Assembly (NCBI GenBank): GCA_002269645.1
Contig: NIVC01000892.1
Coordinates: forward strand, 1 to 64,000
DNA length: 64,000 nucleotides
Reading direction: 5' to 3'
DNA from: Macrostomum lignano
Lineage: Eukaryota
Position 1 is the stretch's first letter; every line of letters begins with the position of its first letter. The position numbers and the translations under genes are program-made. The notes under the pieces are model-generated. The model was given only the letters and a program-made list of their open reading frames with translations, ran no database searches and was not told the origin of the DNA. Of the stretch, positions 1 through 19,922 are shown piece by piece.

Positions 1-2
1 TT

Positions 3-254
3 ATTGGTCATCTTTGGCCAAAATTCGGTTTCTCTAGTCTAAAAAGATATGCAGGCTACTATTCGAATTATCTGGTTGGATACGATGCAGAAAATTTCCC
101 ACAAGCAGTTTCTGTTAGATCAGCATCAAAACCAAGGCTTTTTTGTAACATATTTTTTTCGAAAAAGTTTGTTATTATGGGCGTTCAAAACACTCATGAA
201 TTGAATAATATTCTTAACCATGTCAAGGATTTTTTAATCTCTGTTAATAACTAA
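3..254 (+). CDS. TBP (TATA-binding protein)-like ORF, C-terminal 83 codons, 5'-truncated by the window
   Basis: Frame 3 is open from 3 to TAA 252-254: IGHLWPKFGFSSLKRYAGYYSNYLVGYDAENFPQAVSVRSASKPRLFCNIFFSKKFVIMGVQNTHELNNILNHVKDFLISVNN. By eye it matches the TBP repeat pattern YEPELFPGL..KPK..LLIF.SGK.V.TGAK..EE. Confidence 0.65.
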   Translation: MGHLWPKFGFSSLKRYAGYYSNYLVGYDAENFPQAVSVRSASKPRLFCNIFFSKKFVIMGVQNTHELNNILNHVKDFLISVNN

Positions 255-464
255 ACTTAACAAGTAAACAATTGCTGTCAAATCGCAGTTGCGATGCATT
301 CTTTTACAAACATTTTGTCTTTTTTTTATTTACCAATTGTTTTCTCTAATAGTAAACGTGTCAGCTATACCTATAACTAACCAAATCATCATTTTTCTTA
401 CAGCCGCAAATGACAAACCGGATCATCTATTATATTATGCTCGATACGCTCGTTGTCGAGCTAG

Positions 465-1209
465 GTGCACACAATGCCGCGTGCACAATGCCAAATCTGC
501 AGAAAAAAGTTCAGTAATCAAGCCGAGCTGCATGCTCACTCGCATGGTGCTTGTTTTTCACCGCAACGATTACTGACCGGATCGCTGCAAAACCTGATCG
601 AAAACCCACCAGATGGGTGGTCCATCGCTTTGCGCGAGTCAGCTCATCGTGGTCGGGTAAATTTTGTCGAATTTACTCCCACTCTTGAACAACAAGGCAA
701 CAGCTCTGGCGAGTTACTTCCTGGCGAGTTGATTGCGTCTTTAAGAGAACCAATATTTAAAATATTGGAAAAAATTGGCTCACCCAGTTTATTAATAAGA
801 GTCTGCTTTCACTTGAAAGTGACACTATTTCGACCGAAAACAGCAGCAGACGACAACGATGGCTCGAGCAGCGAAGAGATCATTTCGGTCTATTTTAATA
901 CCAACATTGCGACAATATCATTTGATGAGACGATTGCAAACAGTGACATGCTGTTATCTCCCGAGGCCTACAATGACTGGTTCGCACGCGTTATTAATCA
1001 GTTGTTAATAAAAATTGACAATTTTCAATCTCGAGGTAGTAATTGGCAATATAGAGCAATCGAGCAGCTAGACTTGATGCTCTGCGTTTATCGCAAAAGC
1101 CATGCAAGCACACTGTCAACAAATACGTCCCACGGTGGTGTGGGGGCGGGCGGCGGCAGTGGTGGTGGTGCGGCGGTGGTGGTGTGGTGGTGGCGGCGGT
1201 GGTGGTGGT

Positions 1210-1241
<32 letters not shown>

Positions 1242-1376
1242 GCGGGGGAGTCCGGTCCAGTCCGGTCCGGTCCAGTCCGGTCCGGTCTGGTTAAGCAGCA
1301 ATCGTTTAAAGTTCCAGTCTCAATCGGTCGCAAAGCTGGAGCAGTACTGCTTCTAAAGCCGCACAGAGCAGTTTAA
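465..1376 (+). CDS. Maverick C2H2 zinc-finger / GSxW-domain protein (resembles the pPolB-associated N-terminal region), probably degenerate at its 3' end
   Basis: Finger CQICRKKFSNQAELHAH; motif IDNFQSRGSNWQYRAIEQLDL; GC-rich simple repeat at 1133-1290; an in-frame DNLCF motif lies beyond two stops. The track start is GTG, so the true start is uncertain. Confidence 0.6.
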
Positions 1377-1867
1377 AGCATCAAGACTATTTAAGAGTCT
1401 TACACAAGCGACAACTTGTGTTTTCGCGCATGCAGTCCATTCGTTCTCGAAAACAGAAAGTTTTTTTTGATGCAACAAAGAAAACTTGCACTAAGCTTCT
1501 TCGATACGAAGCGATCCTGGACAAGTTCAATTAATTCGCTACCCTTTGGACACTGGCACTTGGCTAATTAATTAACAATATGCTCTGATCTCTTTTGTTG
1601 TACAAAGTAATAGCATGCTATAGAAGACTGTAACCCATCATTAATTTTTTCATTGATCATTATTTACAATAAATAAATGATACCGGCATTCGTTTAAATT
1701 ATAATTTTAGCACTTTTTTAATTGTGTTTAATTATTTGAAAAAGTATATTTTTTATAGTTAGATTCTCAAGACTAAGCTTGTGTTTGTAGTAGACGTAAA
1801 TGTAGTGCTATCGTTCATGTTTCAAGAAAAAAAACTTTTTTTTAAACTTTCAGCTACAAGAATCGAC

Positions 1868-2350
1868 ATGAATCCCGAGCAGCAGCAGCAACAACAACTA
1901 ACTGATCGTAAGCTTTTAGTTGAACGTCTATACGATTCGGCAACGATTCCGACCCGAAAAACTGTCGGGTCGATCGGGTATGATCTTTGCGCTGGCGTCG
2001 ATGGTACCATTCCGGCCTACGAGTCCCGGAGTGTGCGAACCGGACTCAAAATTCGCTTACCGCCTGGTACCTATGGCAGGATAGCGGGACGTTCCAGCAT
2101 GGCTCTGCACAGCTTATTTGTTGGCGGTGGCGTAATCGACCCCGACTATACTGGTGAAATCTGTATAGTCTTGTTTAATTACAGTCCGGAAGACTTTGAG
2201 TACTATGCCGGGCTCAGTATTGCACAACTGGTTCTGGAGCAGGCCGTGCTTGCTTCAGTCTATGTGACTGAAGCAGACAATTCGATTCGGATGATTGAGC
2301 CGCCGACCAAGCGGCGCGGCTTTGGCGGCTTTGGCAGCACTGGCCAATAA
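1868..2350 (+). CDS. dut: Trimeric dUTPase (viral accessory gene)
   Basis: All five motifs present: GYDL, GRSS, GVIDPDYTGEI, IAQL and RGFGGFGSTG; ATG at 1868. Confidence 0.95.
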   Translation: MNPEQQQQQQLTDRKLLVERLYDSATIPTRKTVGSIGYDLCAGVDGTIPAYESRSVRTGLKIRLPPGTYGRIAGRSSMALHSLFVGGGVIDPDYTGEICIVLFNYSPEDFEYYAGLSIAQLVLEQAVLASVYVTEADNSIRMIEPPTKRRGFGGFGSTGQ

Positions 2351-2444
2351 GTATAATAATAATAATAATAAACTGATTTTTTTCTTTGGTGATTGGTGCA
2401 CTATGCGAGAGCTTTGTAAATACTATAAGCAATTTTAAAAATTT

Positions 2445-2888
2445 ATGCCTAAAATATATGTTGTAAAAATGTCTCCAGCGAAAGATCGAGGTTTTAAAAA
2501 GAAAAAAAAGAGCATTCGTAAAAAGAAGAAATCTATTAGAAAGATTAATAAAAAGCAACAAGGTTATGGTGTCGTAAATTGGTTAATTAATCATTTACCA
2601 TTTGAAGCACATTTACCCGGCGGATATCAGTTTTGTGGTCCAGGTACGCAACTGCAAGCTAGGCTAGCAAAAGGACAACGAGGAATTAATCGGCTTGACA
2701 ATTTGTGCATGCTTCACGACGTGGCCTATGATAAAAATTCTGACGTGCAAGAGAGGTTAAAAGCTGATAAGCTATTAGAATCTGGTGCACGAGAGATTGC
2801 CCACGATCCGTCTACTGGTTGGAAAGAAAAACTAGCTGCGAAGTTGGTTACCAAGGTTATGCAAGTTAAGCAACGCTTTGGTGCTTGA
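2445..2888 (+). CDS. Parvovirus-VP1u-like phospholipase A2 protein with Lys-rich N-terminus
   Basis: Ca-binding loop YQFCGPGT, catalytic HDVAY, downstream AD; N-terminal KKKKKSIRKKKKSIRK. Confidence 0.9.
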   Translation: MPKIYVVKMSPAKDRGFKKKKKSIRKKKKSIRKINKKQQGYGVVNWLINHLPFEAHLPGGYQFCGPGTQLQARLAKGQRGINRLDNLCMLHDVAYDKNSDVQERLKADKLLESGAREIAHDPSTGWKEKLAAKLVTKVMQVKQRFGA

Positions 2889-2890
2889 AA

Positions 2891-3601
2891 ATGCAGCAGC
2901 CATACAATATGCAACTAGCTCACGATTCTACATTTATTATTGCTGGACCTTCAAACTCGGGTAAAACTGAATGGACGTTGCGTTTGTTGACTGAACGAAA
3001 AGAATTATTTGATAAAAAACCGTGCCGTCTTGTTTGGTGCCATGGATCAAGTTTGAAACCAGACGATCAACAACGAATTAGAACATGCTGGCAAAAAAGC
3101 GGTCTTGACCCTATTGTTTTTGTACCCGAATTCACACCACAGATGATTAATCGTTTTTTACCACACGATTTGGTTGTTGTTGACGACTTGCAAAGCGAGA
3201 TTGCTAAGTTGCCAGAATTTACTAGTATGTTTACAAAGCATGCGCATCATATCCCTTTGACTTGTCTGTACCTTTGTCAAGGTCTTTTTAACAAGTCTGA
3301 TCCAGAAGCACGCATGCGAAGTTTATCAGCTAGTTATATTTGTCTAACTCGTAGTGTGCGCGATCGAACCACAGTTGAACATCTCGGTCGACAAATGTAT
3401 CCGCGTAATAGTAGGTTTCTAGTGAATGTGTATGAAGACGCAACAAATAACAAACCTTTTTCATATTTATTCATTGACCTGCGGCAAGTGACACCAGATT
3501 TTTTACGATTGAGAACAGGAATATTTCTGGTGATGAACAAGTTGTCTATACTCGTGAATGTGATGCAAAGTTTGTGTAATATTATTATAAGCAAATTATA
3601 A
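2891..3601 (+). CDS. A32/FtsK-like DNA packaging ATPase
   Basis: Walker A GPSNSGKT, Walker B VVVDDL, plus HH..(L)CQ and RD motifs of Polinton ATPases; probable 1-nt frameshift near 3527. Confidence 0.92.
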   Translation: MQQPYNMQLAHDSTFIIAGPSNSGKTEWTLRLLTERKELFDKKPCRLVWCHGSSLKPDDQQRIRTCWQKSGLDPIVFVPEFTPQMINRFLPHDLVVVDDLQSEIAKLPEFTSMFTKHAHHIPLTCLYLCQGLFNKSDPEARMRSLSASYICLTRSVRDRTTVEHLGRQMYPRNSRFLVNVYEDATNNKPFSYLFIDLRQVTPDFLRLRTGIFLVMNKLSILVNVMQSLCNIIISKL

Positions 3602-3636
3602 ACTGTTGTCAATATTAGTTTGTGTTTTATTTCAAA

Positions 3637-4632
3637 ATGAGTTTTTACGTTTTTTTGCCGTCAAACGATATCAGTTACGAAACCAACTCGCCTAATGAAT
3701 TTCGAGTGCGACTAACTGAACCAATAAATTTATTGAACGGATTCTTCGAGGTTGCACTAGTTGAATTACTGTGCCATGGAGCAATTACGACGCCAAATGC
3801 TCATCGTGAGCGTCGATTTGAAGTTCCATATTTTGCGGACATTGACTCAATAATACGATTAAAGAAAAACTATTGGGGTCGTGTTTGGGCAGAGGCAGAC
3901 TTGGATGCTTACGTTTCCTGGCAACCGTCTGGTACAGATGAAAAATTTGCCTGGCTTTTACGAAATTCAGGCGAAAAAACTATTGGATTAGAACTACCAG
4001 TTACATTTATGGACGCTTTCAAATTTGACTCTTGGAAGAAACTTTCTGGACTTGTCTCGGAAAAATTATCAAAACCTGCCGCTGGTAGTGTACAACCACC
4101 GGATGGTTCATACTTGGATTTGATAAAAAGTCTCGACAATACTCTAGCGCTAGTACCTGAGAACTATTATGTTTTTTATTGTGTTCTATCGCCTGGTGAA
4201 GCTATACGACTTGTTTCGCATGGAGACTATCTTCGAAAAACGGAAGGAGAAGTGTACATCAAAGTACACCAATATTGGTTGAGAAATCGTGTTTGGCGCA
4301 TTAACAAAACCTACTTGGATGCTGTGCTACCTTCTCCGATGCCTAGTAAAACGGTTTACATGTACTGTTACACAGATATAATCGAGTATCAAGCAGTGGG
4401 AAGTACATCAGTACCGTTGCTTCGAGTTGTGGAACTCCAACAAAAGAAAAACGGAGAACTTATACGCGATAGCAGTGCATTGCAAACACCCTACTACATG
4501 TACTTGAAAACAAATCGACAACAAATTCACGAGATTTCGATTCGACTATCGGACCAGCGCGGAAAACCGTTTAATTTTGATCCGGGAGCACACGTTGTTG
4601 TCGTACTGCATTTTAAACATAGGTCGGACTAA
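3637..4632 (+). CDS. Penton / minor capsid protein
   Basis: N-terminus FYVFLPSN..N...FRV.L..PI.L.G.FEVAL.E; C-terminus YTDIIEYQ.VG....PLLRVV...I.I.L.DQ.G.P..F...VV.LHF. Both are typical of Maverick pentons. Confidence 0.85.
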   Translation: MSFYVFLPSNDISYETNSPNEFRVRLTEPINLLNGFFEVALVELLCHGAITTPNAHRERRFEVPYFADIDSIIRLKKNYWGRVWAEADLDAYVSWQPSGTDEKFAWLLRNSGEKTIGLELPVTFMDAFKFDSWKKLSGLVSEKLSKPAAGSVQPPDGSYLDLIKSLDNTLALVPENYYVFYCVLSPGEAIRLVSHGDYLRKTEGEVYIKVHQYWLRNRVWRINKTYLDAVLPSPMPSKTVYMYCYTDIIEYQAVGSTSVPLLRVVELQQKKNGELIRDSSALQTPYYMYLKTNRQQIHEISIRLSDQRGKPFNFDPGAHVVVVLHFKHRSD

Positions 4633-4688
4633 TTTATAAGCAAAGATTAATTGTGTAATAGAAAATTTTGTGAATTTGTTTTTTAAGA

Positions 4689-5117
4689 ATGAGCGAACTA
4701 ACAGAAAAAGGAAAACAAAATGCTCGCTCATTGTGTCAGTGTGCTTTTTTACTACAAATTGTTTATCGGCTAAAGCATCCAAAGCAGAGAAAAAGTTTTT
4801 TACAAACACTTTCAGAGTCGGAGATACGATGTCTAGTAGACTTTCTGTTTAATATTATTAGTGGACGTATTAAAATTAGTAACTGTAACAAAAGACGACT
4901 TGAGAAGCATCGCAGATATATACGCCAGCTTTTGGAACAGAAGACTCCAATTACTGCAAAAAGGAAAATACTTGTCCAACACGGAGGATTTTTACCTTTT
5001 TTGGCTCCAATTATTGCCGCTCTACCTGCTATAAGCACTGCGCTTGGGATAACGTCTGGAGTAGTTGGTACCGCCGCGGGAGCAGCGAATTTAATACGAT
5101 CAATTCAACGAAAGTAG
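4689..5117 (+). CDS. Conserved Maverick core-like protein with adenovirus pX-like GGFLP hydrophobic tail
   Basis: Basic helical body followed by LVQHGGFLPFLAPIIAALPAI, similar to adenovirus pX (GG.LP.LIP.IAAAIGA). Confidence 0.75.
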   Translation: MSELTEKGKQNARSLCQCAFLLQIVYRLKHPKQRKSFLQTLSESEIRCLVDFLFNIISGRIKISNCNKRRLEKHRRYIRQLLEQKTPITAKRKILVQHGGFLPFLAPIIAALPAISTALGITSGVVGTAAGAANLIRSIQRK

Positions 5118-5127
5118 TAGGAATATA

Positions 5128-5817
5128 ATGCGAACTAACGAGAGTAGTAGTTTTCAACGAATGTATTTAGTCCCTGAATCTGTGTATCAATCTGCATGTC
5201 AAGGTGCAGAGCAAGGATCGTCACCAACTGCTGAGACACCTCGAAAAACTGAAGTTTTAGACGCACCGCAAGATGCTCTGGCAAAAAATATGGTGGAAAT
5301 GAGAGACCAAATGGATAACTTGGACAAGGAAATGGAAAAGGAGCCAAATTACACAGCTCAATTGAAACGAAGCAGATTGGAAGACAAACTTTTAAAATTG
5401 CGCAAAGTCTATCGCACTGGAGACGAGGACAATCTGTCACTTGTTCGCAAAGGGACTACTGTAAGAAGTTCATATGCCAGCGAATCAAGGGAAATTCCTA
5501 AAGTTTTTTTACCACGTTTCGAAGCTCTCGCTCAAAACCTATTTTCGGACATGGACAAGAATGCAGAACCAATGCTGGCTAATTTGACTGATGCCGAGAT
5601 ACAAGATCTCATGGAATATGTTGTTCGAGACAGACCGCTTAAGCGACACGAGACTCAACCGCCTAGTGGACTAAAAACATTTTTAGACTTTCTTCGAAAA
5701 CGTGGAATCGCAGCAAACCAAATCGGGCGTCATGTACGAAACGAGCTAATGTCTGCTCCAAAAACTGTTGCAAAGGAGGATCTTAGTCTGTTTGAAAATT
5801 ATCAAACACTGGCTTAA
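5128..5817 (+). CDS. Uncharacterised Maverick protein (helical/coiled-coil)
   Basis: 229-aa uninterrupted ORF filling the gap between viral genes; RMYLVP near the N-terminus; upstream TATAAGC at 5030. Confidence 0.7.
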   Translation: MRTNESSSFQRMYLVPESVYQSACQGAEQGSSPTAETPRKTEVLDAPQDALAKNMVEMRDQMDNLDKEMEKEPNYTAQLKRSRLEDKLLKLRKVYRTGDEDNLSLVRKGTTVRSSYASESREIPKVFLPRFEALAQNLFSDMDKNAEPMLANLTDAEIQDLMEYVVRDRPLKRHETQPPSGLKTFLDFLRKRGIAANQIGRHVRNELMSAPKTVAKEDLSLFENYQTLA

Positions 5818-5918
5818 TTTGTTTTAAATGTTTTAACAAAATTGATTCGAGCACTATAAGCTTTTTAAAAAGGTTAATTTTTTGTTTATGAAAAATATAT
5901 AGTTTAATAAGACAAACC

Positions 5919-6107
5919 ATGTCATCTATCTTCCAAAAACTTTTGATTCGTCTCTGTGAGTTTTTTTGCATAAAATCTGAATGTGTGCCGTTTCTGGGAA
6001 AGGAGCACAACGAGGATACTGACGGAGATTCGATCGAGGCTTCGTTCTTTTGTTGCAACTGTCAAACGACTAGCATCAATCTAACTGATGATGAAGCGAG
6101 TGCGTAA
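5919..6107 (+). CDS. Possible small Cys-rich viral ORF (62 aa) overlapping the integrase start
   Basis: ATG in good context (ACCATG) 64 nt after a TATAAGC; six Cys and an acidic stretch; no recognised homology. Confidence 0.3.
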   Translation: MSSIFQKLLIRLCEFFCIKSECVPFLGKEHNEDTDGDSIEASFFCCNCQTTSINLTDDEASA

Positions 6108-7248
6108 GGAAATTGAAGAATTTTTTACGGATGCTTTTTTTAACTTGAACAAGCCTACTTCATTTAGTGGTAACAAGACTATACTTGTTCGTGAAGTACG
6201 TAAAAAGTTTCCACAGATTACGAACAAAGTTGCAAAGCGCGAAGTTGATAATTGGGTGCGATCAACAAATGAGCATCATTTATTTCGAAAAACACGACGA
6301 AACTTTCCAACTCCAAAAATTAGTGTGCCACCAGTTGCAAAGTTTCAGTTTCAAATCGATTTGGCAGATTTACCTCAATACAAGACGGAAAATCGAGGTT
6401 ATCGTTACATACTTGTTCTTATCGACTGTTTTACTAGAGTTGTACGACTAAGACCATTGCGTACAAAGAAGCCTTCAGAAGTTAGTCAAGTATTACTAGA
6501 GATTTTTCGAAGTGGTTTTAAGCCTGTTTATTTACAAGGTGATGCTGGTATGGAGTTTCTCGGAAGAGCTACACGTCAAATGCTGAAACAGGAAGGAGTT
6601 CGATTTTTTGTTAGCCAAAGCAATTACAAGGCAAGCATGGCTGAACGATTTATCCGCTCGTTAAAGGAACGTCTATTACGATACTTTCGAGCAAAAAATT
6701 TACCTCGATGGTTTGACATTTTACCGCAATTGGAAGATAATTTCAACTCTAGTCCTCATCGATCCTTGAGTGGAGAAACACCAAAACGGGTAGAGACAGA
6801 CCCGCATTTACAAGGAATTTTGTGGGACAAAATGTTTGCGAAGTCGTACACTAAAAAGAATGAGAATAAATTTAAAGTTGGTGATTGGGTTAGAATTACA
6901 CGACGTCGAGGAACATTTGAAAAAGGATACACTACGACTTGGAGTAATTCAAAATATCGCATTCATCGTGTACACTTGACAGACCCGCCAATGTACGAAT
7001 TAGTGGACCCTGAAGATGGATTTGAAGTGCTGAAAGGAAGGTTTAACCAAGCGGAACTAATGTTGGTAAACGAGACAGATGAAACACCTAATGAAATTGA
7101 AAAAGTTATTGAAACTGATCGAGCGAAAAATGGAAGTCGTCTGTATCTAGTAAAATGGAAAGGTATGCCAATCTCAAGAAGTCAGTGGTTAAACGAAAAT
7201 GATCTTGACGCAAAGACTGCTAAACTATTTTCTAAAGTGTATAAGTAA
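6088..7248 (+). CDS. Retroviral-like DDE integrase with C-terminal chromodomain
   Basis: Catalytic triad in FQIDLADL, LQGDAGMEF and MAERFIRSLK; chromodomain EIEKVIE...YLVKWKG.....QWL.E.DL; ORF intact. Confidence 0.95.
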   Translation: MMKRVRKEIEEFFTDAFFNLNKPTSFSGNKTILVREVRKKFPQITNKVAKREVDNWVRSTNEHHLFRKTRRNFPTPKISVPPVAKFQFQIDLADLPQYKTENRGYRYILVLIDCFTRVVRLRPLRTKKPSEVSQVLLEIFRSGFKPVYLQGDAGMEFLGRATRQMLKQEGVRFFVSQSNYKASMAERFIRSLKERLLRYFRAKNLPRWFDILPQLEDNFNSSPHRSLSGETPKRVETDPHLQGILWDKMFAKSYTKKNENKFKVGDWVRITRRRGTFEKGYTTTWSNSKYRIHRVHLTDPPMYELVDPEDGFEVLKGRFNQAELMLVNETDETPNEIEKVIETDRAKNGSRLYLVKWKGMPISRSQWLNENDLDAKTAKLFSKVYK

Positions 7249-7289
7249 CACATGAATTGGGATTGCATGACGATGAGAAGACTGTTGAA

Positions 7290-7748
7290 ATGGATCCTAT
7301 TTTTGCTTTTTATTCTGGTCCGAATAGATCTGCTGAAGGTGGAGGTGGATCTGGCATTCCTGTTTACGAAGGTTACGGTTTTTTGTCAAATTTGGCGGAC
7401 AGATTGGTGTATCCTGTACTACGCAACGCAAAGAAAGATTTCTTGGATCGTGGTCTGGAGTATTTGAAAAGTGCGACAGCAAAAATTGGTATGGGTCGGA
7501 AGCGTCACTTGGACACAGAATCGAGCGAAGAGATGTTTAATACAACTGCAGTTTCGAGACCAAAGCGAAGGAAAAGAACCAGTGGAGTGGCTATAAGCTT
7601 AGGAAAGAAGAAACGGCAAAAGAAACGACGAACAAGACAGTGTGGAAAGGGACGCGTGAACAAAAGAAAACGCAAGAAGACCGGTGGTATAGGAAAACGT
7701 CGAACTGCTACTGCAAGCAAGAAACTTTTTAGTCTGTTTGAAAAGTAG
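7290..7748 (+). CDS. Basic core protein (adenovirus pVII-like precursor)
   Basis: Gly-rich GxG motifs (EGGGGSG, YEGYGFL), then an amphipathic helix and a very Lys/Arg-rich C-terminal half; immediately precedes the MCP. Confidence 0.7.
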   Translation: MDPIFAFYSGPNRSAEGGGGSGIPVYEGYGFLSNLADRLVYPVLRNAKKDFLDRGLEYLKSATAKIGMGRKRHLDTESSEEMFNTTAVSRPKRRKRTSGVAISLGKKKRQKKRRTRQCGKGRVNKRKRKKTGGIGKRRTATASKKLFSLFEK

Positions 7749-7749
7749 C

Positions 7750-9072
7750 ATGAACCATTTGCTTGGACCTGATATTGCTGCTCTTAAAAGTGAATTGTCG
7801 CTATTTGATCAAAGTCCTGTTCAGTTTAGTGTTTTGGATAATCGATATACTAACATTCAACCGCAACATGGTATTACAAAAGGATCACCTATCGAATTTG
7901 AAGTTGTGCCTGCAGGCGATTTGTATTTGGATCTACAAGAAACTGTGCTCACGGTATGCTTCAGCGTTAGTGATAGTGAAGGTGAACCTATAGATGCAAC
8001 GAAAAATTTTGTTTGTTTGAATAATTTGGTTATTGGAACATTGTTTGAGGACGTTCAATTTACTATTGGCGATACTGTAGTTGAAGGTGGTAGTTTTATG
8101 TATCCATACAAGGCTATGCTTCTTACATTACTGGAATATGGACATACAGCTCAGAAGGCTGGTTTACTGCCGTGGGGGTTTTACAAGGATACAGCTGGTA
8201 AAATGAATGCAACAAGTGAAAACGATGGACGAACAAAGAGGCAGGCGCTCATTGCTAACAATAGGCGGTGCACTGTATCGGGGCCGTTATTCTTGGATTT
8301 GTTTCGTCAGCCTCGGTATCTACTATCAAAGACACCACTACGGATCAAGCTCATACCGGCAAAAAGTAAATTTGTCCTGAGCGGGTCAACATTAGAAGCT
8401 GGTGCGGTTTTAAAAGACTATGAGATCAAGTTTTTGCGTGCAGAACTACGATTGCGGTTTGTTCAACCCTCGCCGAGTGTTATCAGTGCACATGCTCATG
8501 GACTTAAAAGTCACAATGCATTATATCCGCACCGAAGTCTAAGCCTTGGTACGTTTACTATACCCCGAGGATCGTCTAGCCATACGCATGAAAATTTGTT
8601 TCCTAGTGGGGTACCACGGCTTTTATTGATGGCAATCGTAAGCAACAAGGCATTCAATGGAAGCATGGACACAAATCCGTTCAACTTTGAGCATGCAAAT
8701 GTGAGCAGCATTGGTGTGTTTGTGAATGGAGACTCGGTACCATCGCGTCCGCTGCAGACAAACTTTGGAGATGATTGTGTGACAGAGTATAATTTTTTGC
8801 TACAACAGCTTGGAATCTATCTACAGGGACGAGATATTGGATTTAATATGCTGGATTACGCCAATGGTTACTCAATTTTTGCATTCAGTCTTGGAAGTGA
8901 ACCTGGTGTCGGACGGGGAGTGCAACTGTATAAGGAAGGAAATGTAAAACTAGAGTTACGCTTCAATGCTGCAACTAGTACCGTGTACAACGTCATATTT
9001 GGAGGTATATTTGACAAGCAACTGCAACTGACTGAACTTCGCGACATTGTTCCTGGCACAGTATGGAAGTAA
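7750..9072 (+). CDS. Major capsid protein (hexon-like, Polinton PY)
   Basis: KSELSLF..SPVQ..V......I.P......PIEF.V....DLYLDL..T.L motif; SGPLFLDLF.Q..YL; NPFNF; G...L...F at the C-terminus; 440-aa intact ORF. Confidence 0.92.
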   Translation: MNHLLGPDIAALKSELSLFDQSPVQFSVLDNRYTNIQPQHGITKGSPIEFEVVPAGDLYLDLQETVLTVCFSVSDSEGEPIDATKNFVCLNNLVIGTLFEDVQFTIGDTVVEGGSFMYPYKAMLLTLLEYGHTAQKAGLLPWGFYKDTAGKMNATSENDGRTKRQALIANNRRCTVSGPLFLDLFRQPRYLLSKTPLRIKLIPAKSKFVLSGSTLEAGAVLKDYEIKFLRAELRLRFVQPSPSVISAHAHGLKSHNALYPHRSLSLGTFTIPRGSSSHTHENLFPSGVPRLLLMAIVSNKAFNGSMDTNPFNFEHANVSSIGVFVNGDSVPSRPLQTNFGDDCVTEYNFLLQQLGIYLQGRDIGFNMLDYANGYSIFAFSLGSEPGVGRGVQLYKEGNVKLELRFNAATSTVYNVIFGGIFDKQLQLTELRDIVPGTVWK

Positions 9073-9626
9073 TTGATTCTATCCTAGATCGTGGTGTAAC
9101 AGATCGCTTCCTTCGCAATGTTGTATCGAAATTGTGCGCACATTTTTTAAATGTTGTATTTCTTGGTGTTTTTCCTCAAAACTTTGTTGGTGGACTTAGA
9201 CGCTTACCTTTAGACGGTAAAGACTATTTTTTTATCGTTAATACTGACGTCTCCAACCTGCCCGGAAAACATTGGGTATGCGTTTGGGTTTATGGTCATC
9301 GAGCAGGTCGCGGTAGCAAACGACTTGGTGAATATTTTGATTCTCTTGGTCTAGTACCATTGCCAAGAATAGCAAAATGGCTAGGAAAAGAATGTGGAAA
9401 TTCGAAAAATTGGTGTTATAGTCGCTTTGCTATCCAAGACCCACAGAGTGGAAGTTGTGGATTTTGGGTAATTTTTTATATTTTTCATAAGTTGACTACC
9501 AGAGGAAACCTAGAGTGTTTTATTCGAAGCGTTTTTAAACGGAATATAATTCGCACTGGTTCGTTTCGATACTTGTATGCTAAATTACGCAATTTTGTTT
9601 TACGAGTGCTGCCTCAATATTTGTAA
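9063..9626 (+). CDS. Adenain-like cysteine protease
   Basis: NTD....PGKHW (His), YFDSLG (Asp), IQDPQSGSCG (Gln/Cys); overlaps the MCP stop. Confidence 0.93.
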   Translation: MEVIDSILDRGVTDRFLRNVVSKLCAHFLNVVFLGVFPQNFVGGLRRLPLDGKDYFFIVNTDVSNLPGKHWVCVWVYGHRAGRGSKRLGEYFDSLGLVPLPRIAKWLGKECGNSKNWCYSRFAIQDPQSGSCGFWVIFYIFHKLTTRGNLECFIRSVFKRNIIRTGSFRYLYAKLRNFVLRVLPQYL

Positions 9627-10227
9627 ACTCGCTAATTTGTGCGTCAAATTGTGTTTGTATCTAGTTGAAATATACAATACTGCTTGAAAAGAAGAATTTA
9701 AATGCGTTAAGTTATACGCGAAATAAGCTTTGTGTCAAATTGAATTTTGGTTGGGCTTGTAATTAGCTGCATTCATTGCGGATAGAATTTAGGTGGATAG
9801 ACAGGTGTTTGCGTAAAAGTGATTCAGCTAATTGGTTAATTCATTGCGTAAAAGCTAGTTTGCGTGCACGGCAAATTTCAGACTCTGCCATTTTTTTGGG
9901 CCTGTACTTACTATGTATTTCGCCATAAGGAAATCGGCTTTGTGTCAAAAAAACGTATACTACTTCAACCGACGATTATTTATCGATGTCGGAAAAGTTA
10001 ATTCGAATAAACCTGACAGCACTATACCACTTCGACAGTAGATTAAGGGCTTAATTATCATGAAGGCAGCAGACCTGCAGGACCAGATGCAGTACACATT
10101 TGCAAGAGGCACAGGTTGCAACATGGGGAATACATCCTCTGTTTATTAGCCTGATCAGAATAGAGGGCTGATTCATCACGAAGCTTGGTCTTGGATACAA
10201 GGACTGCTTGAAAAGTACTTAATCGAT

Positions 10228-10546
10228 GGGGGTAGTCTAGTGGTTAGAGCGTCGGACTCACTCTGGAAGGTCGGGGGTTCGATTCCTGATCCCACTCGGT
10301 ACATTTTGTGTTCTTGACCAAGACAGTAACTCACTCTGCATTGCTTCAGTTCACCCAGCTGTAAAATGGGTGCCAGCATTAGCTGGGGGGGGGGGGTAAT
10401 TGAGGGGTGTGGCGACCCCCAGTCCTTGGACTGAACAGCCACCGTACGCAGCCTTCAGATGCGCCGCGCAATAGCTGCGGCTGGGCTGTCAGTTGCACAT
10501 CTGCCCACTAGAGCTGGTGTTATCACTTATTATCATTATTCATATT
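10228..10546 (+). mobile_element. tRNA-derived SINE, family 1 (CORE-like central domain)
   Basis: A box TAGTCTAGTGG, B box GGTTCGATTCC, body CTTGACCAAGAC...CACCCAGCTGTAAAATGGG, (TAT)-rich tail; two further copies in the window. Confidence 0.85.
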
Positions 10547-10695
10547 ACTTAAACGATACCTAAGTCGTGCTCGCATGGATAGCTACAGGCTTAGTAAAGC
10601 AGAAGGAGCAAATTAAATTTAACCTTACTTAGAAAGTATTTAATTTTGACACGATTGACACAACCTGCAAAACTCCCCGCTGTAATTATCAAGAC

Positions 10696-10862
10696 TAGGG
10701 GTGTTCGGGGTTCGGGGTTAGGTCGGGGTTCGGGGTCGGGATTAGGGGTCGGGGTTCGGGGTCCCGATGAATGTTCGGGATGGGGTTCGGGATTCCCGAA
10801 AGATGTTCGGGATCGGGGTTAACCCCGAACCCCGAAAAAAAATGCCATCCCGAACACCCCTA
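10696..10862. mobile_element. hAT-type MITE (167 bp)
   Basis: TIRs TAGGGGTGTTCGGG / CCCGAACACCCCTA; perfect 8-bp TSD ATCAAGAC at 10688-10695 and 10863-10870; internal TTCGGG(G) repeats. Confidence 0.9.
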
Positions 10863-12229
10863 ATCAAGACACTATACCTAATGATATAAAAATTAGCTAG
10901 ATCACAGAAGTAACTCAATTTTAGTAAATAAGCTACCAAGAGCAGTAACAGGTTTTATTTTCCTGTATATATCTTCTGCTTAAATGATAGAAATACTTTC
11001 AAACACACTGGTTTCTAAAGGCCCTATGAGTGCTAGGGCTCACATCTGTAACTCACCGAACCGAATATTATTCGAGGCACTATTCCAGGCACATAGGCGC
11101 AATGGAAATCAAATAATGGTTTGAGCGGGTAGGGTCAGCGCTCAAGCAGCTTCTCTCTCACAGGCAACCAGGCAAACCCCCCCCCAAAGCATTGGCTGTG
11201 AGTCTTCTGTGTCACTCGTTCGCAGGCTGCTGGCTTGGCACTCAAATCTCAGCTTCGTTTTTGTCTTTTGGCCATTGAGGCCGGCTAGTCTAGAGCTGGT
11301 CTGTTTGGATATGTACTCGTGGTTGCGGTCGAGATGAGTAGAGGTCGTTGTTTTTCCAGTGCTTACAAGCACCTTCACAGCAGATCCACACCCTGACCGT
11401 GAAATAAAACTTATAGATAAGCCTCTTTATTAGACTTTTGCCATTGTACTCCGCCAATTTCGTGCCAAGATTGGCTGCATAGAGGGGCCCCGGGGGGTGG
11501 GAAGGTGACCCGCAACAGCCTTCAGTTTGCATTTTTGCCCATGAAACGACAATTTATATGGTTTTTTCCCATATAATCGTTTCCTTCTGCCAACAAACAG
11601 TTCAGGAAGACAACGAACTATGGACTCGATGGTACTTTCTCTGTGTGATCTCTAGAGTCACATTCTCAAACTTCAGGCGAGGATCTTTCCTCTTCAATCA
11701 GTATATTTTATAAGCTAACACACTGTACGCGAGCAAGGAGGAATAGGGGAAGAAAGTGGAATGGGGAGGCCCAATAGGAGCCGTCGGCCAGAGGAGATTC
11801 ATGCATCACGCGAGGCTGGGCTTCTCGCTCGCCGATCATCGGGGCTATTTTTAGGCATGCAGATCTTGTGCATCTGGGGAGTTGCTGCCAAGGCTGGATG
11901 CTTGTTCACGCATCACGCGCGTGTCGGCTGATTTCTCCCACCCTCTTGCTAACGGCGCTTTCGTTTCACTTCACCCAGTCCATGCAACTAATGTACTCTA
12001 ATGTACTCAACTAATGTACTAAGGCACGAGCTTAAAATAAACAAATTGAACTACGTAGTATTGCTTGCGTCTGACATAAATTACAGGCTAGCTATAGTTA
12101 AAGCCCAGGCGTTTTTACTCACAATTCGTCCATTAAAAACCCAGCCACTGGAGCTTCGTGACCAGCAAGAAACATTCAACATTCTAGTAACAAGGAAAAC
12201 GTAAAGCAACAGCATTCAGGTGCCTGAAA

Positions 12230-13789
12230 ATGTCCGAGAACGTGCGCCAATTTGTCAGCAAGCTAGTTAGCGCCGAAGCTCTAGATAGTGCCAAAGATTT
12301 TTGCCTCGCCAATGGTAAAAGCCTGGCTGCAGCCACTGGAGCCGCGGTGGCGCTGCTGTACGCGGCCAGAGCTTACTATCGGGTTTATAGACTGCCACCA
12401 GGACCTCTGGGCTTGCCTATTCTTGGCAGGTTGCCCTGGCTCGACCTGAAACACTTGGAAGAGAGTCAGGAGAAGATGCGACATCAATACGGTGGTATCT
12501 ATTCGTACCGAATGGGCAGCCGCCTGATGATAGTTGTGTCCTCCTATGAGCTGCTCAAAGAGATGCTCAGCGAAGACGTCTTTTCTGGCAGGCAGTTGCC
12601 CCCAGCCGCTCAGCGGACGGCTCAAGATTGCGGAATACTCTTTGTCGAAGGTCGAGTCTGGTCTGAGCAACGAAGAGTGTCTCTACGGGTCCTGAGAGAC
12701 TTTGGCTTTGCTCGCACGGAATCTGTGGAGTTTATCAATGAAGAGATTTGCATCCTGATGGAAAAACTGGAGCAGCAACCGACTGAGGTCAAGGTGATCG
12801 ACCATTTTAATGCCCTGACTAACAGCGTCATTGCTATGCTCGTGTTCGGTAGGCGCTACGCCAACGAGGACAAAAGATACGAAAAATTCTTAGAGAATTC
12901 AAAGTTTCTCTTCGACGTAGGACTACTGAGTGAACTGCCGTTTCTCTTTCCCTACCTGTCCAAGTTGCTCAGTCTTTTGCCAATGACTAGAAAAATCGTT
13001 AAAACTGTCCAAGACATTCAAACGTTTATCGAGGAAGAGATTACTAAGCGAGAGGCTCTGATCTCTAGCGATGCTGATGCCGAAGGAACTTGCCTGTGCG
13101 ATGCCTACATTATAGAGCGCCGGAATGCTGAAGCCAAGGGTGACTTTGAGACGTTCAAAAAATTCCAGCTAGTCAGGGTTAGCATGGAACTGTTCGTTGC
13201 TGGCACCGATACCACGGCAAAGACGCTGGAGTGGCTCATGATCCACATGGCCGCGTTCCCGGAGGCGCAGGACAATGTCCAGGCGGAGATTCACCAAGTT
13301 GCTGGAACGGAGAGGCAGCCGCAGCTGTCGGACAAAGCGCAGCTGCACTACACGCAGGCTGTCATCGATGAGAGCATGCGGTTCGCATCTCTGGCTCCAA
13401 ATGCGATATCTCACAGAGCTATAAAAGACACGTACTTCCGAGGCTATCTCATTCCGGCCGACGCAGCCATTGTGCCATTCCTGTACGGACTGCATCGAAA
13501 CTCGAAGTACTGGAAGCGACCGCATACGTTTTATCCGGGTCACTTCCTGACCGAGGACGGCCGCTACGCTCCATCAAAGATGTTGGAACCGTTCTGCGTC
13601 GGCAAGCGGGCCTGTCCGGGCGAGAGTTTGGCCAAGTTGGAGATTTTCCTCACCTTCACGGCCATCATGCAGCGCTATCGGGTGAGATTCTCGCGCGACT
13701 ACGAGACTAAAGTGGACGATATTCTGCGCGGAGTGTGCGGCCTGGCCCGCGACGCGGGGGAGAACCGGCTGGACTTTGTGCGACTCTGA
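12230..13789 (+). CDS. Cytochrome P450, CYP2 clan, single coding exon
   Basis: PPGP hinge, I-helix AGTDTT, ExxR (ESMR), heme motif FCVGKRACPG; 519 aa intact. Confidence 0.95.
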   Translation: MSENVRQFVSKLVSAEALDSAKDFCLANGKSLAAATGAAVALLYAARAYYRVYRLPPGPLGLPILGRLPWLDLKHLEESQEKMRHQYGGIYSYRMGSRLMIVVSSYELLKEMLSEDVFSGRQLPPAAQRTAQDCGILFVEGRVWSEQRRVSLRVLRDFGFARTESVEFINEEICILMEKLEQQPTEVKVIDHFNALTNSVIAMLVFGRRYANEDKRYEKFLENSKFLFDVGLLSELPFLFPYLSKLLSLLPMTRKIVKTVQDIQTFIEEEITKREALISSDADAEGTCLCDAYIIERRNAEAKGDFETFKKFQLVRVSMELFVAGTDTTAKTLEWLMIHMAAFPEAQDNVQAEIHQVAGTERQPQLSDKAQLHYTQAVIDESMRFASLAPNAISHRAIKDTYFRGYLIPADAAIVPFLYGLHRNSKYWKRPHTFYPGHFLTEDGRYAPSKMLEPFCVGKRACPGESLAKLEIFLTFTAIMQRYRVRFSRDYETKVDDILRGVCGLARDAGENRLDFVRL

Positions 13790-14684: not shown

Positions 14685-17600
14685 TTAAACTCGTTTCAAA
14701 TGCGCCCTCAATATATAGGCGGCAACCAAGGCGCTGTTGACACTGCCGAGAAAGCCAAACGACCAGACGCCGAGATTGTCCAACATTAGGCCGCCTAGCG
14801 TTGGCGAAGCGATGCGAATAACGCTATTGATTGACATGTTGATGCCCAGTACAGAGCCTGCGGATTTTGATGGATGCAAGCTATGATTTGTACGGGCGAA
14901 TTGCACTCAAATTTGTGCTATTACAACGATTTTCAAAGTACATTAGCGTCTACTCTCATTCTTGGGTCCTATAGTGACGAGTGACCCTCAGAGAGTGCCT
15001 CATCAGAGAGGCTTACAGAGCGTGTTCTTGGGCGATTCTCAGTGATTTACTGACGACTCTCAAGGTGTGTTCTGAAGCCATTCCTAATGATTTACTGACG
15101 ACTCTCAAGGTGTGTTCTTGGGTGATTCTCAGTGATTTACTGACGACTCTCAAGGTGTGTTCTGAAGCCATTCCTAATGATTTACTGACGACTCTCAAGG
15201 TGTGTTATTGGGTGATTCTCAGTGATTTACTGACGACTCTCAAGGTGTGTTCTGAAGCCATTCCTAATGATTTACTGACGACTCTCAAGGTGTGCTCTGG
15301 GGCGATTCTCAGTGATTTAATGACGAATCTCAAAGTGTGTTCTGAAGCGATTCCTAATGATTTACTGACGACTCTCAAGGTGTGTTCTTGGGCGATTCTC
15401 AGTGATTTACTGACGACTCTCAAGGTGTGTTCTGAAGCGATTCCTAATGATTTACTGACAACTCTCAAGGTGTGTTCTGGAGCGATTCTCTGTGATTTAC
15501 TGACGAATCTCAAGGTGTGTTCTGAAGCGATTCCTAATGATTTACTGACGACTCTCAAGGTGTGTTCTGAAGCGATTCCTAATGATCTACTGACGACTCT
15601 AAAGGTGTGTTCTGGGGCGATTCTCAGTGATTTACTGACCACTTTTAAGGTGTGTTCTGAAGCGATTCCTAATGATCTACTGACGACTCTCAAGGTGTGT
15701 TCTGGGGCGATACTCAGTGATTTACTGACAGCTTGCTTTCACGCTGAGTTCAAGGGTGTTACTTTATGTCTGCAGAATATTTAGTATATTACTCTTATTA
15801 ATGGAATGTACCGCCTTTTTGAAACGGTAATAAAATTTTCGATTCTAAGTAGATAAATCACGACTTGATTACTTACCGGTATCCTCCAGCGACACAGCAT
15901 TGGTGAGCGCACTGCTTACCAGCACATTGATAAGTGTCAGGCCGATAACCAGAGGCAGAATGCACACGAATAAGTAGTAGATCTGGGTGCCAAGAAACGC
16001 CTGTAAAAGTGAGTTCACAGCATTAAGGAAAATAGCTGGAAAAGATGTGTATGCAAAAAAGATGTGTATCACGATCTATATAATTCAATGGTCAAAGCAC
16101 TTGCCAACATGAAATATCCCACTGTGAGAATGGCACAACCGACAGTCAGTAACAGGCTGTCGCTAAATCGTTTAGTCAGCACAGAGATGCCAAGACCTTG
16201 CACAGCCATTGACACTACAGCAACGTACGCCATCATAATTCCGCTAATCTGAGGCGTAGCGCCCAGCTGTTTGACAGAAATGATTGGCATCATGCTCTGC
16301 AGTAGGCCAATAGGAATTCCTGTGACAACTTTCACCGCCAGCAGCCAACGAGTTCGTCGATTCTTCACTAGGAACTCGGAGAATTTCGCCAAGTCGAATA
16401 CCTTAGCGCCTGATGAAGACGATTTGAAGCCAGCCTCATTGGCGTCATCTGCCGAGGAGGAGGCTGTTGAAGACTTTGACATAACAGGGGAAGCCTTCAG
16501 ATTAGCGGGGATGGTTAGCCAAACGGCTGACATGCTACCGAATGAGAGAACAGCCGCGATGAAGCAGGCGTAATGCTCACTGTTGAGAGGAGAGGTCGGA
16601 GAGAGGTGAACAAGTGTGTAGAGGTTTGGGCAATGTTTAACGACTCTCAATGTAGCTTAGGAGTGATTCTCGATTTTTTTACTAAAAGACTGTCAACGTG
16701 ATTCAGAAACCAGTGGCAATTTGTTTATTAAACGACTCTCAATGTGGTCTAGGAGCGAGTCTCGGGTGCTTAATGAACCACTCTCAGTGTGATCTAGGAG
16801 TGAGTCTCGGGTGCTTAATGAACCACTCTCAGTGTGATCTAGGAGTGAGTCTCGGGTGCTTAATGAACCACTCTCAGTGTGATCTAGGAGTGAGTCTCGG
16901 GTGCTTAATGAACCACTCTCAATGTGGTCTAGGAGTGAGTCTCGGGTGCTTAATGAACCACTCTCAATGTGGTCTAGGAGCGAGTCTCGGGTGCTTAATG
17001 AACCACTCTCAATGTGGTCTAGGAGTGAGTCTCGGGTGCTTAATGAACCACTCTCAGTGTGATCTAGGAGTGAGTCTCGGGTGCTTAATGAACCACTCTC
17101 AATGTGGTCTAGGAGTGAGTCTCGGGTGCTTAATGAACCACTCTCAGTGTGATCTAGGAGTGAGTCTCGGGTGCTTAATGAACCACTCTCAATGTGGTCT
17201 AGGAGCGAGTCTCGGGTGCTTAATGAACCACTCTCAGTGTGATCTAGGAGTGAGTCTCGGGTGTTTAATGAACCACTCTCAATGTGGTCTAGGAGCGAGT
17301 CTCGGGTGCTTAATGAACCACTCTCAGTGTGATCTAGGAGTGAGTCTCGGGTGTTTAATGAACCACTCTCAATGTGGTCTAGGAGTGAGTCTCGGGTGCT
17401 TAATGAACCACTCTCAATGTGGTCTAGGAGTGAGTCTCGGGTGCTTAATGAACCACTCTCAATGTGGTCTAGGAGTGAGTCTCGGGTGCTTAATGAACCA
17501 CTCTCAATGTGGTCTAGGAGTGAGTCTCGGGTGCTTAATAAACCACTCTCAATGTGGTCTAGGAGCGAGTCTCGGGTGCTTAATAAACCACTCTCAATGT

Positions 17601-19922
17601 GGTCTAGGAGTGAGTCTCGGGTGCTTAAAATGAACCACTCTCAATGTGGTCTAGGAGCGAGTCTCGGGTGCTTAATGAACCACTCTCAATGTGGTCTAGG
17701 AGCGAGTCTCGGGTGCTTAATGAACCACTCTCAATGTGGTCTAGGAGCGAGTCTCGGGTGCCTAATGAACCACTCTCGGTGTGGTCTAGGAGCGAGTCTC
17801 GGGTGCTTAATGAACGACTCTCAACTCTCAATGTAAGTCCAGGAGAGAGTCTCTCGAGCAATGAATGCATTGGCGCCTCGTTGGTTGTGATATAGTTAAA
17901 GAACTCATTGGGCAAAGGTTTAATAACTTTTCATACAATGCACTACACAAACCTGGTCGCCTTGATAATGAAACCACTGGATAGGGAGCCGAGCACCATG
18001 CCGACACCGTAGGAGATGCCGAGCTTGGCTAGACTATCCGATCGTTTTAACGGGTCTGATAGGTCCGTCACCACCATCTGACCGCCTGAAACACAAAAAA
18101 TAAGAATGCAGCTTTAGTACGTTCCGGTACTGTGGTACCTAATTAAACCAGAGTTTTCGTAGAGTTACTAGTACAGTATTTAATCGGACAACTACCATAG
18201 TTAATAACACTTAAAGTTTTTATGGTATTTCATTAAAAGACTAATATCATTCAGTAATTACTTTGACAACTATTATCTGGGTGGATGTTTCATAGCGCCC
18301 CTGTCACAGTTACAATTGTGACAACCGAGTAGTGATAATTGTTTATTCAAAAGCGGTTGGTTTCATAAGACATCACTTTATTGGAAGTGAAAAGCACTTG
18401 ATTCTAGACAAGCTTCAGGACAATTCAGGACAAGTAGCCCCAAGAAATTTTTCAGCAATTCCCTGGGGGTTGACTGTGACTGCGCCAGCGAGGCACCCGT
18501 TGCTTTGGCCATAGACATTCTAAGTCACTACTAAAGCTTGTAACTTGCCATTAGATTTAAAAATCAGTTTATGCAACTAAACTTCGCAGAACTTGGTAAA
18601 TTTGCTAACTTGTCGCTTGCATAGATCTTATATTCTCTTGATAGACCACTTTGTATGGCGGTAATAGGGAAAGTGCAACCGCTGTTTTTCGTCACTTGTG
18701 CGAAAAAAGCCGACATGGGTTGCTTAAATTTTGAGTTCAGTAGCTTAAGGGACATAGACGCTACTTTTGAGAATTGAATAAAACTTCGCGTGAATTAATC
18801 AAACAGCTACTCAATTGAACTAAGAATGATGAATTCACTGCAGAGACTACTGACGAAATTGAGTTCAGTAGTTGATTTTCGCGCTGTCGCGAGATGCAAT
18901 TTTTTTACATTAGCTTCTATGGTCACATAAGCGGTTAATGATTGGCCCATCTTGTGTATATATGATCGCTTGTCATTATTAACCTGTAACTTATAACTAT
19001 GAAACACCAACTCTCATAGAATTTCAGGTCACTAAGGCTAGTTCAGAGACATAGACAAAAAGAGCAAGAAAACTAGACTTAATGTTTGAAATTGCGGGGA
19101 CTGTGAGAGTTGCATCATGGTCTATATGTATCATAGACTATGCTAATAAGTGCATGTCTATAATTCACAAGGCTTGTAGAAACTCAATTAAGACAAACTT
19201 CCTATCTTTTCAATTGCGCCCCAGATTAACGGTATTTTGGTTTTCTTCTAGTATGGAAGGTCTAGCACAGGGTTCTCTTAGCACGGGTTTTTTTTCCAAG
19301 TTCAATCGGTTAGGAACATTCAGTCATTGTTTATTGACAGTTAGGCTCTGACTAAACTAAGACGAACACCATTACGTCTACATCAGTTTTATGAATTGAC
19401 GTTTTGCTTGTTTGAATAAAAAGGGGATTTTGTTCAAAATCGGAGGTAAACAGCTGTGTAGTGATTTGGCATTGAACTACACGGATACCACGTGGATAGA
19501 CATAGTGCATGCAGATACATTAGCTACAAACTGGTTACTAACACTGATACCTAAACAACACCCAATTTTTTACCCTGCATCGCGTGCACCAACATTAGCG
19601 GCAGCCGGGACAAAAACATCCAAAACAAGCCGTCAGTTAGGGCCACAGTCAGGCACGATATTCCTGAGGCGCCAAACGCCAGACAGAGCGCCAATCTGGC
19701 GCCATACAAATCGCCAAATCGGCCAAACAGCGGCCCGCCAAGCAGTTGAACAGCGGCAAACATCGTCTGCAAGTAGCCAAATGCCAGATTTGAAGCCTCC
19801 CACTTCTGTAATAGAAACGGCACAGCGGCCTGTTGGATCCAGAAAGCCAGCGAGTATAGCGCTATGTTGGCGTGCGTGCTCAGCATAATTGCACTGGGTG
19901 ACAACTGTCCCTTGCCAGCCAT
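14685..19922 (-). CDS. SLC22A18: SLC22A18-like MFS transporter, 5 exons: 19922-19574, 18085-17953, 16579-16105, 16000-15877, 14857-14685 (417 aa)
   Basis: Splice phases join into one 1254-nt ORF; motifs GGPLFGRFGDLYG, QMVVTDLS and NAVSLEDTGSVLG match the SLC22A18 family; intron 3 is GC-AG. Confidence 0.88.
15025..15728. repeat. 45-bp minisatellite with alternating A/B variants (SLC22A18 intron 4)
   Basis: GATTTACTGACGACTCTCAAGG recurs every 45 nt (15044, 15089, ...). Confidence 0.95.
16727..17825. repeat. 45-bp minisatellite (SLC22A18 intron 2), about 24 copies
   Basis: Unit TAATGAACCACTCTCAATGTGGTCTAGGAGTGAGTCTCGGGTGCT. Confidence 0.95.

Follow-up and report, generated by a model that had tools for sequence, protein, structure and literature searches.

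Viral TATA-box-binding proteins (TBP) and TBP-mimic switches of late genes are known, and a bare TBP of altered specificity with a box of its own in an animal Maverick is undescribed as far as searched; a literature search over mostly open journals, figures and preprint supplements apart, returned no Maverick TBP with a matching box. ORF24 of KSHV (Kaposi's sarcoma-associated herpesvirus), as presented in the accessible part of PMC12529657, combines a TBP fold and retained phenylalanines with polar residues at L114, L205 and L189 (Table 1), a surface that its authors link to TATT promoters, and works with host RNA polymerase II (Pol II) on this single non-canonical late-gene box. The same source describes a protein of 752 residues that has domains for Pol II binding and for additional DNA binding as well as a further C-terminal domain, needs five more viral factors, in a six-factor complex, and is without the acidic pair that binds TFIIB. 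Nucleocytoviricota have divergent TBPs, nearly always together with a TFIIB of their own in the part of PMC7221094 available to us, and the available part of bioRxiv 2022.05.25.493380 mentions TFIIB for giant viruses only. For the Mavericks, Polintons and adintoviruses of PMC8502044, the accessible text labels TBP only in the legend of Figure 5, on MELD viruses, and does not contain the word 'promoter'; in the accessible part of the preprint, TBP is likewise confined to figure legends on these viruses. Here we analyze a 64,000-nucleotide stretch of Macrostomum lignano DNA (contig NIVC01000892.1; the window), which holds the 3' part of a gene for a TBP homolog with the TBP fold at its left edge, a Maverick virion module downstream, and TATAAG boxes before eight genes of that module, a placement that is new in this analysis.

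The TBP sequence lies at 3..254 on the plus strand and covers the C-terminal lobe (83 residues), the 5' part of the gene being off the window. Frame +3 is open over 83 codons, with an open 5' end and a TAA stop at 252-254, and contains the YDAENFP motif quoted in an earlier note that had proposed a TBP fold here from the sequence alone. TBP (PF00352) was the sole Pfam family matched (E 0.0022), at 18.2 bits, which for this fragment falls below the family cut-off of 22.9 bits. In a sequence search of the PDB, all 23 matches at E<=10 were TBPs or TBP fusions, the best with E 1.5e-5. A model of the 83 residues, built from the fragment and four relatives, reached a predicted local distance difference test (pLDDT) of 90.1 and a predicted template modelling score (pTM) of 0.80; its top four matches among 48,161 chains were TBPs (Z 7.8, 7.7, 7.5 and 6.2), with 74 of the 83 residues aligned at a root-mean-square deviation of 2.6-2.7 Å, and the best unrelated chain had Z 5.8. 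A Z below 8 is by itself no proof of a TBP fold, and the PDB sequence matches agree with the ranking. At E<=0.001 Foldseek found no match for the short fragment model; its six best rows were nonetheless all TBP. With Pfam, PDB matches, structural ranking and relatives all in support, the identification of the ORF (open reading frame) as the C-terminal lobe of a divergent TBP is confirmed. There was no PHROG match for the window TBP, and none of 14 candidates scored in a search for longer proteins with the 83-residue fragment. One contig of sequencing run X12 has two small gaps within this ORF.

Searching 1.84 billion representatives with the window TBP gave six matches, four of them true relatives of 143-257 residues; P0002 and P0006 were dropped as fibronectin-type repeat proteins matched through their repeats. 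The family is 43-47% identical in the alignment, with 24 invariant columns, and three of the four relatives pass the Pfam TBP cut-off (33.8, 30.8 and 28.6 bits; the fourth has 22.8). As in cellular TBP, two lobes are present in the relatives; unlike it, they have little or no N-terminal extension. The model of relative P0004 (208 residues, pLDDT 74) aligned with TBPs of solved structure along about 190 columns at E 5e-8, with a TM score of about 0.4 that reflects loosely placed lobes, and among the matches listed all 38 Foldseek rows at E<=2.3e-5 were TBP-bearing chains. Its top fold matches in BFVD were giant-virus TBPs, at 7-16% identity, and the Atlas clusters nearest to the family are 50-59% viral, a likeness to the TBPs of Nucleocytoviricota. 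The family alignment retrieved no fifth relative (4 matches among 5,979 candidates), and no loci of the relatives were found in viral, metagenome and prokaryote collections and phages; the four are singletons on short contigs.

Identity of the family to two canonical-type TBPs is 15-24% (about 20%), and structural alignments place the window lobe at 16-23% identity to cellular TBPs. The five family members cluster as one clade with support of 100/100, and the branch leading to it measures 3.2 changes per column; the tree has nine rows, no animal TBP or TRF2 and long branches that meet, and the placement and origin of the family lie beyond it. Since the family is strongly divergent from canonical TBP, a recent host capture is excluded, as the earlier note had argued. 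As to the viral lineage that it suggested, the analysis recovered no tie or clade with giant-virus TBPs, the family standing alone on its long branch in this tree. Host TRF2/TBPL1 has lost most intercalating phenylalanines and is about 40% identical to TBP, features that do not seem to fit a lobe that keeps both C-lobe phenylalanines at about 20% identity.

Contact residues were numbered as in Table 1 of PMC12529657, with a canonical-type TBP of yeast-equal spacings as the ruler. The intercalating pair of the C-lobe, F190 and F207, is kept together with P191 (window F32, F51 and P33), as are V213 and G216. Around these, the surface differs from that of cellular TBP: in all five family members L205 is Asn, T215 is Met and V203 is Phe, while G210 is Lys in the window and Lys or Arg (Arg once) across the five. 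L189 is Asn in the window member only, and its lobe has a two-residue insertion after the FP motif. The N-lobe contacts of the relatives are also changed, with F116 replaced by Tyr in 4/4, L114 by Gln in 3/4, V122 by Thr, T124 by Phe or Leu, and N159 by Thr; at F99, where the alignment is uncertain, the three relatives that reach so far have Tyr, Tyr and Phe. Positions N69 and V71, whose alignment is doubtful, were set aside. Two glutamates of TBP are TFIIB contacts in the available part of PMC7221094, and the corresponding acidic pair of the window protein is D28 and E30 (positions 186 and 188). Position 188 is Glu in all five members; position 186 is acidic in one, the Asp of the window.

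The window family thus differs from ORF24 as a bare TBP that keeps the acidic pair, the window protein ending directly after its lobe, and it does not fall into the ORF24/UL87 class of large multi-domain mimics in a six-factor complex. Both have the TBP fold with retained phenylalanines and polar residues at L114, L205 and L189. The likeness to ORF24 would be one of function, no sequence relationship having emerged. One could also imagine that the protein is a decoy or repressor, which would occupy TATA-like DNA or soak up TFIIB and so damp host or own transcription, the boxes being a separate matter. The retained Phe pair and acidic stirrup of the C-lobe would suit such a role, as would the strongly rebuilt N-lobe of the relatives (F116, T124, N159), the N-lobes of viral TBPs having been proposed to escape host regulators (PMC7221094, available part). 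We nevertheless consider it unlikely, as it leaves the uniform non-canonical box of the same element unexplained.

A second question is whether the TBP gene is part of the Maverick at all. As the earlier note stated, the next ORF begins at 465 on the same strand, 210 nt past the TBP stop; the TBP strand is in fact that of 11/11 element ORFs of at least 100 residues. Positions 1-1100 are contained in 20 sequencing runs under one organism label from 8 studies, and in three of the four runs examined a single contig over 1-1141 joins the TBP to the next ORF and extends 263-737 nt beyond base 1. Contig depth at 1-340 is near that of the virion module, which is a weak sign. The G+C content at third codon positions (GC3) of the TBP ORF is 0.27 and its codon score 0.143, with 9/11 element ORFs at 0.12-0.23 and two host genes at -0.18 and 0.03; the dUTPase (-0.16) and the polymerase remnant (0.007) are also outside the element range. 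The gene could in principle be a host TBP paralogue or pseudogene beside the insertion, or dead cargo, and the left terminal repeat is indeed off the window and the polymerase of this copy broken. Against this stand the contigs that join the TBP to a polymerase-like remnant, the element-like codon usage, above both host genes, the open frame, and the 24 columns held invariant in a family so far from canonical TBP, and we regard such an origin as quite unlikely. Membership, as claimed in the earlier note, is therefore backed by strand, shared contigs, a polymerase-like neighbor and codon usage, and is unproven as regards the left terminal repeat; we hold it to be very probable that the TBP gene belongs to the Maverick.

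Within 1-9964, TATAAG occurs eight times on the plus strand and once on the minus strand, and all eight plus-strand copies, which the earlier note did not mention, lie 21-158 nt before the starts of eight different virion-module genes. They are found at 2424..2429, preceding the first ATG of a phospholipase A2 (PLA2)-domain ORF by 21 nt and its second by 45; at 3586..3591, 51 nt before a minor-capsid-like ORF; at 4635..4640, 54 nt before a pX-like ORF; at 5030..5035, inside the pX ORF and 98 nt before ORF 5128; at 5855..5860, 64 nt before a 62-residue ORF and 233 nt before the integrase; at 7240..7245, in the last integrase codons and 50 nt before ATG 7290 of a basic ORF; at 7592..7597, 158 nt before the major capsid ATG; and at 8929..8934, inside the capsid ORF and 134 nt before the protease ATG. 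Six of the eight boxes have C at position 7, so that TATAAGC occurs 6 times versus 0.6 expected. ATPase and integrase are each directly downstream of a boxed gene, the ATPase, which has no box of its own, starting 2 nt past the PLA2 stop. No TATAAG was found within 500 nt upstream of the polymerase remnant or the dUTPase.

For a span of 15-160 nt before the 11 ORFs of at least 100 residues, 7/8 boxes are so placed (P 2e-5), and for 12 starts, including the 62-residue ORF, 8/8 (P 9e-7); with either set TATAAG ranks first of 3,263 hexamers, and an AT-matched null gives the same. A 100-nt span retains 5/8 (11 starts, P 3e-4) and 6/8 (12 starts, P 3e-5), and an automated two-strand test placed 7/9 TATAAG, before seven genes, again at rank 1. 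Over the whole 64 kb TATAAG is not enriched (33 vs 35), and the signal is therefore one of placement. Four of the boxes sit within coding sequence; in-frame Tyr-Lys pairs are written TATAAG at 2/2 gene-end sites and TACAAG at 4/4 internal ones (Fisher P 0.067), and the Tyr-Lys of the capsid is common to its three closest relatives and occurs in 5/113 aligned capsids overall.

The late promoter motif of baculoviruses is DTAAG. TATAAG contains ATAAG, a word that is strand-biased here (15 on plus versus 3 on minus), and the boxes might be late promoters of a baculovirus-type helper virus, much as virophages use giant-virus promoters, with the TBP incidental. Placement before starts is confined to TATAAG itself: other TAAG words show it in 4/24 cases (P 0.63), which makes a helper virus very improbable.

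For comparison we used seven elements without detected TBP, namely L001, a complete Polinton with matching ends, and six partial, mutually related elements of PLA2 class, together with L032, a Polinton with a TBP. The six were what remained of 14 loci found with a PLA2 pattern, after exclusion of five without an element gene and of the short L016, L018 and L022. Neither of two profiles detected a TBP in L001, nor did Pfam in 9 of its ORFs; the broader profile was sensitive enough to find the L032 TBP (E 9e-15). A TBP pattern search gave L032 as the one Polinton among 9 loci, plus one unrelated locus. L032 is a 20.6-kb IMG/VR contig with polymerase, integrase, capsid, ATPase, protease and dUTPase, and carries tandem TBP and TFIIB genes at 7841-9036 (minus strand), between its capsid and integrase regions; these proteins occur on 201 and 132 contigs, respectively, of up to 21 kb. 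Its TBP (PF00352, 51.8 bits) belongs to another lineage than that of the window, with 18-20% identity to the window family, Ile at the L205 position and a paired TFIIB. Polintons do, therefore, carry TBP. TBP in mid-size linear DNA viruses also has an earlier record, as a label in the PMC8502044 legend. A profile of six L032-type TFIIBs, run against six frames of the window, found no TFIIB (best E 0.52), nor did Pfam in 12 element ORFs, within the visible 9,964 nt; nor is an RNA polymerase of the element seen there, a difference, for this visible part, from Nucleocytoviricota.

None of the eight comparator elements has such a uniform box. In the seven without detected TBP, TATAAG does not rank above 124, and the commonest TATA hexamer upstream is in most cases TATAAA. 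The L032 contig, Polinton-type as it is, was binned with a giant-virus genome. L001 has at 11373-11885 (minus strand) a PC4-like ORF (weak Pfam match, E 0.003), another general transcription cofactor fold.

Together, the boxes and the altered TBP suggest that the element steers the host transcription machinery to its own late genes. Nucleocytoviricota mostly encode their own RNA polymerase; Mavericks, to our knowledge, encode none. In the scheme that we propose, the element would encode a TBP of two lobes and about 180-210 residues, made early, with the ORF as its second lobe. Its retained Phe pair would bend DNA, and its rebuilt, more polar saddle would prefer TATAAG(C), a box presumably poorly used by host TBP. 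The acidic stirrup of the C-lobe could then recruit TFIIB (that of the host, unless one is encoded in the left part beyond the window) and host Pol II, and the capsid, core, protease and integrase genes would be switched on together, in a mode like that of ORF24 on TATT boxes, with a bare TBP. Timing, preference and recruitment are here inferred, and we give about even credence to the reading that the window TBP is a late-gene specificity factor leading host TFIIB and Pol II to TATAAG promoters. Arndt et al. are said to have found in 1994 that TATAAG is read by yeast TBP L114F. In a TATAT context, G at position 6 leaves an activity of about 7% in tobacco and fly and 40% in HeLa (Table 5 of PMC10005294, available in part).

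Several observations weigh against this proposal. Position 6 of the box should be read by the TBP lobe that lies off the window here, as does the promoter of the TBP gene itself, and the E186 position is Asn or Ser in 4/4 relatives. The repeat at 1142-1296 is spanned by no run contig, and only the window links the TBP with the virion module. Both the 160-nt span and the 62-residue ORF were picked after the data were seen, and after Bonferroni correction for 4,096 hexamers the values become 0.07 with 11 starts and 0.01 with 12. The box-to-ATG spacing, 21-158 nt, is loose, and in 4/8 cases another ATG comes first past +25, where simple scanning fails. L001, with no TBP, has TATAA[AG][CA] before five genes (5/11 matches, P 0.009), two of them TATAAG, and in L032, which carries both TBP and TFIIB, TATAAG ranks 316 and no box is uniform. 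In some species, moreover, octamers that contain TATAAG are frequent words of core promoters (PMC9504043, available part).

The last of these points bear most directly on a different explanation, in which host TBP/TFIID reads the TATAAG boxes as common variants of TATA and the viral TBP is an optional booster or stand-in (for instance when host TBP is scarce) of unchanged specificity. The boxes of L001 mean that TATA-type boxes do not need an element TBP, and with the canonical TATAAA ahead of the ATPase and other genes in L017, L024, L026 and L029 they indicate that TATA boxes before virion genes are general; L032 shows that a TBP does not imply a private box. The distinctive feature of this element is that G uniformly occupies position 6, and not that TATA boxes precede virion genes. 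The window element uses TATAAG before 8 genes, TATAAA before one and TATATA before none, and the DNA-contact residues are changed alike in 5/5 family members, both of which speak against this reading. We therefore see unchanged specificity as doubtful, though as a plausible account.

A private box read by a re-specified TBP may hold beyond this copy. Some animal Mavericks might run an orthogonal late-transcription code, in which a minimal re-specified TBP recognizes a TATAAG box private to the element and works through the TFIIB and Pol II of the host. Polintons would then have gained or remodelled a TBP on more than one occasion (by itself here, together with TFIIB in L032); to this generalization we lend somewhat less than even weight. 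If true, it would be the smallest viral system to swap the host promoter-recognition factor, a parallel to herpesvirus ORF24/TATT that uses many fewer components and arose in a virus group unrelated to it. A viral TBP with its matching box is a concrete candidate for an early-to-late switch of Maverick capsid genes and would help to tell whether Mavericks make particles, and when. The protein would also be a natural altered-specificity TBP, useful for understanding TATA recognition.

The remainder of the element, all on the plus strand, has the composition of a Maverick, with retroviral-type integrase, capsid, packaging ATPase and cysteine protease all present. The ORF at 465..1570 (ORF 474) is a probable N-terminal remnant of a protein-primed B-family DNA polymerase (pPolB), as judged from a C2H2 finger followed by a motif collinear with the L032 polymerase. 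The pairwise matches to that polymerase are weak (E 0.012 and 0.068), the comparison with the L001 polymerase is not significant (E 0.59; 155/300 shuffles equally high), tblastn of the L001 polymerase against the window gave no match, and the Atlas match of the ORF scored below 0.9. A simple-repeat tract (~1133-1291), together with stops and frame changes, interrupts the remnant, whose catalytic part is absent within the window. The tract at 1133-1291 consists of GGT/GGC and GTCCG repeats, and run contigs branch off near 1370 and 1570, where other copies or related elements may differ. Small indels relative to all four runs occur at several places of the window, two of them in or at ORFs (the polymerase remnant and the 3' end of the ATPase), and may be assembly errors or copy-specific breaks.

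Next come a dUTPase at 1868..2350 (PF00692, E 1.8e-29), whose GC3 of 0.53 and host-like codon usage are unlike the rest of the element and perhaps reflect a later acquisition, the protein with a parvovirus-type PLA2 domain at 2445..2888 (PF08398, E 3.4e-9), and the packaging ATPase at 2891..3601, which is 40% identical to the L001 ATPase, itself matching Adeno_IVa2 and Pox_A32. The ORF at 3637..4632 has 35% identity over 88 residues to an L001 ORF and no Pfam match; its position suggests a minor-capsid-like protein, as in such elements. It is followed by an adenovirus pX-like core protein at 4689..5117 (PF05829, E 2.3e-6), a 229-residue ORF at 5128..5817 that weakly resembles (E 0.2) the ORF found at this position in L001, the 62-residue ORF at 5919-6107, with no Pfam or PHROG match, and the retroviral-type integrase with a chromodomain at 6088..7248 (rve E 4.6e-8, Chromo E 1e-6). 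The basic 152-residue ORF at 7290..7748 is a putative core protein. The Maverick major capsid protein at 7750..9072 is 28.5% identical to that of L001 and has 112 homologs at E<=1e-20, animal F54H12.2-like proteins included, and the adenain-like cysteine protease at 9063..9626 (Peptidase_C5, E 0.038) is 31% identical to the L001 protease.

The right end of the element is the ACTACT at 9959..9964, a terminal motif that we presume to be a Polinton trait. In two runs, contigs diverge from the window sequence at 9964-9965 and continue into two other flanks; this departure fixes the right end and indicates several insertion sites. No second copy was found within the 64-kb window, and no Rfam match in 1-12000. 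With its integrase and chromodomain, capsid, ATPase, adenain, PLA2 and pX domains, terminal motif and several insertion sites, the element resembles the Mavericks of PMC8502044 as far as its available part describes them, and differs in that PLA2 and pX are separate ORFs and that the polymerase of this copy is a remnant.

In the host flank, 12230-13789 (plus strand) holds a single-ORF cytochrome P450 gene of 519 residues, and 21170-23005 (minus strand) a single-ORF F-box/LRR gene of 611 residues. Tandem arrays of 45 nt at 15022-15729 and 16731-17824 read as long repetitive ORFs and sit between pieces of an apparent transporter gene on the minus strand, and many more arrays follow up to 59 kb.
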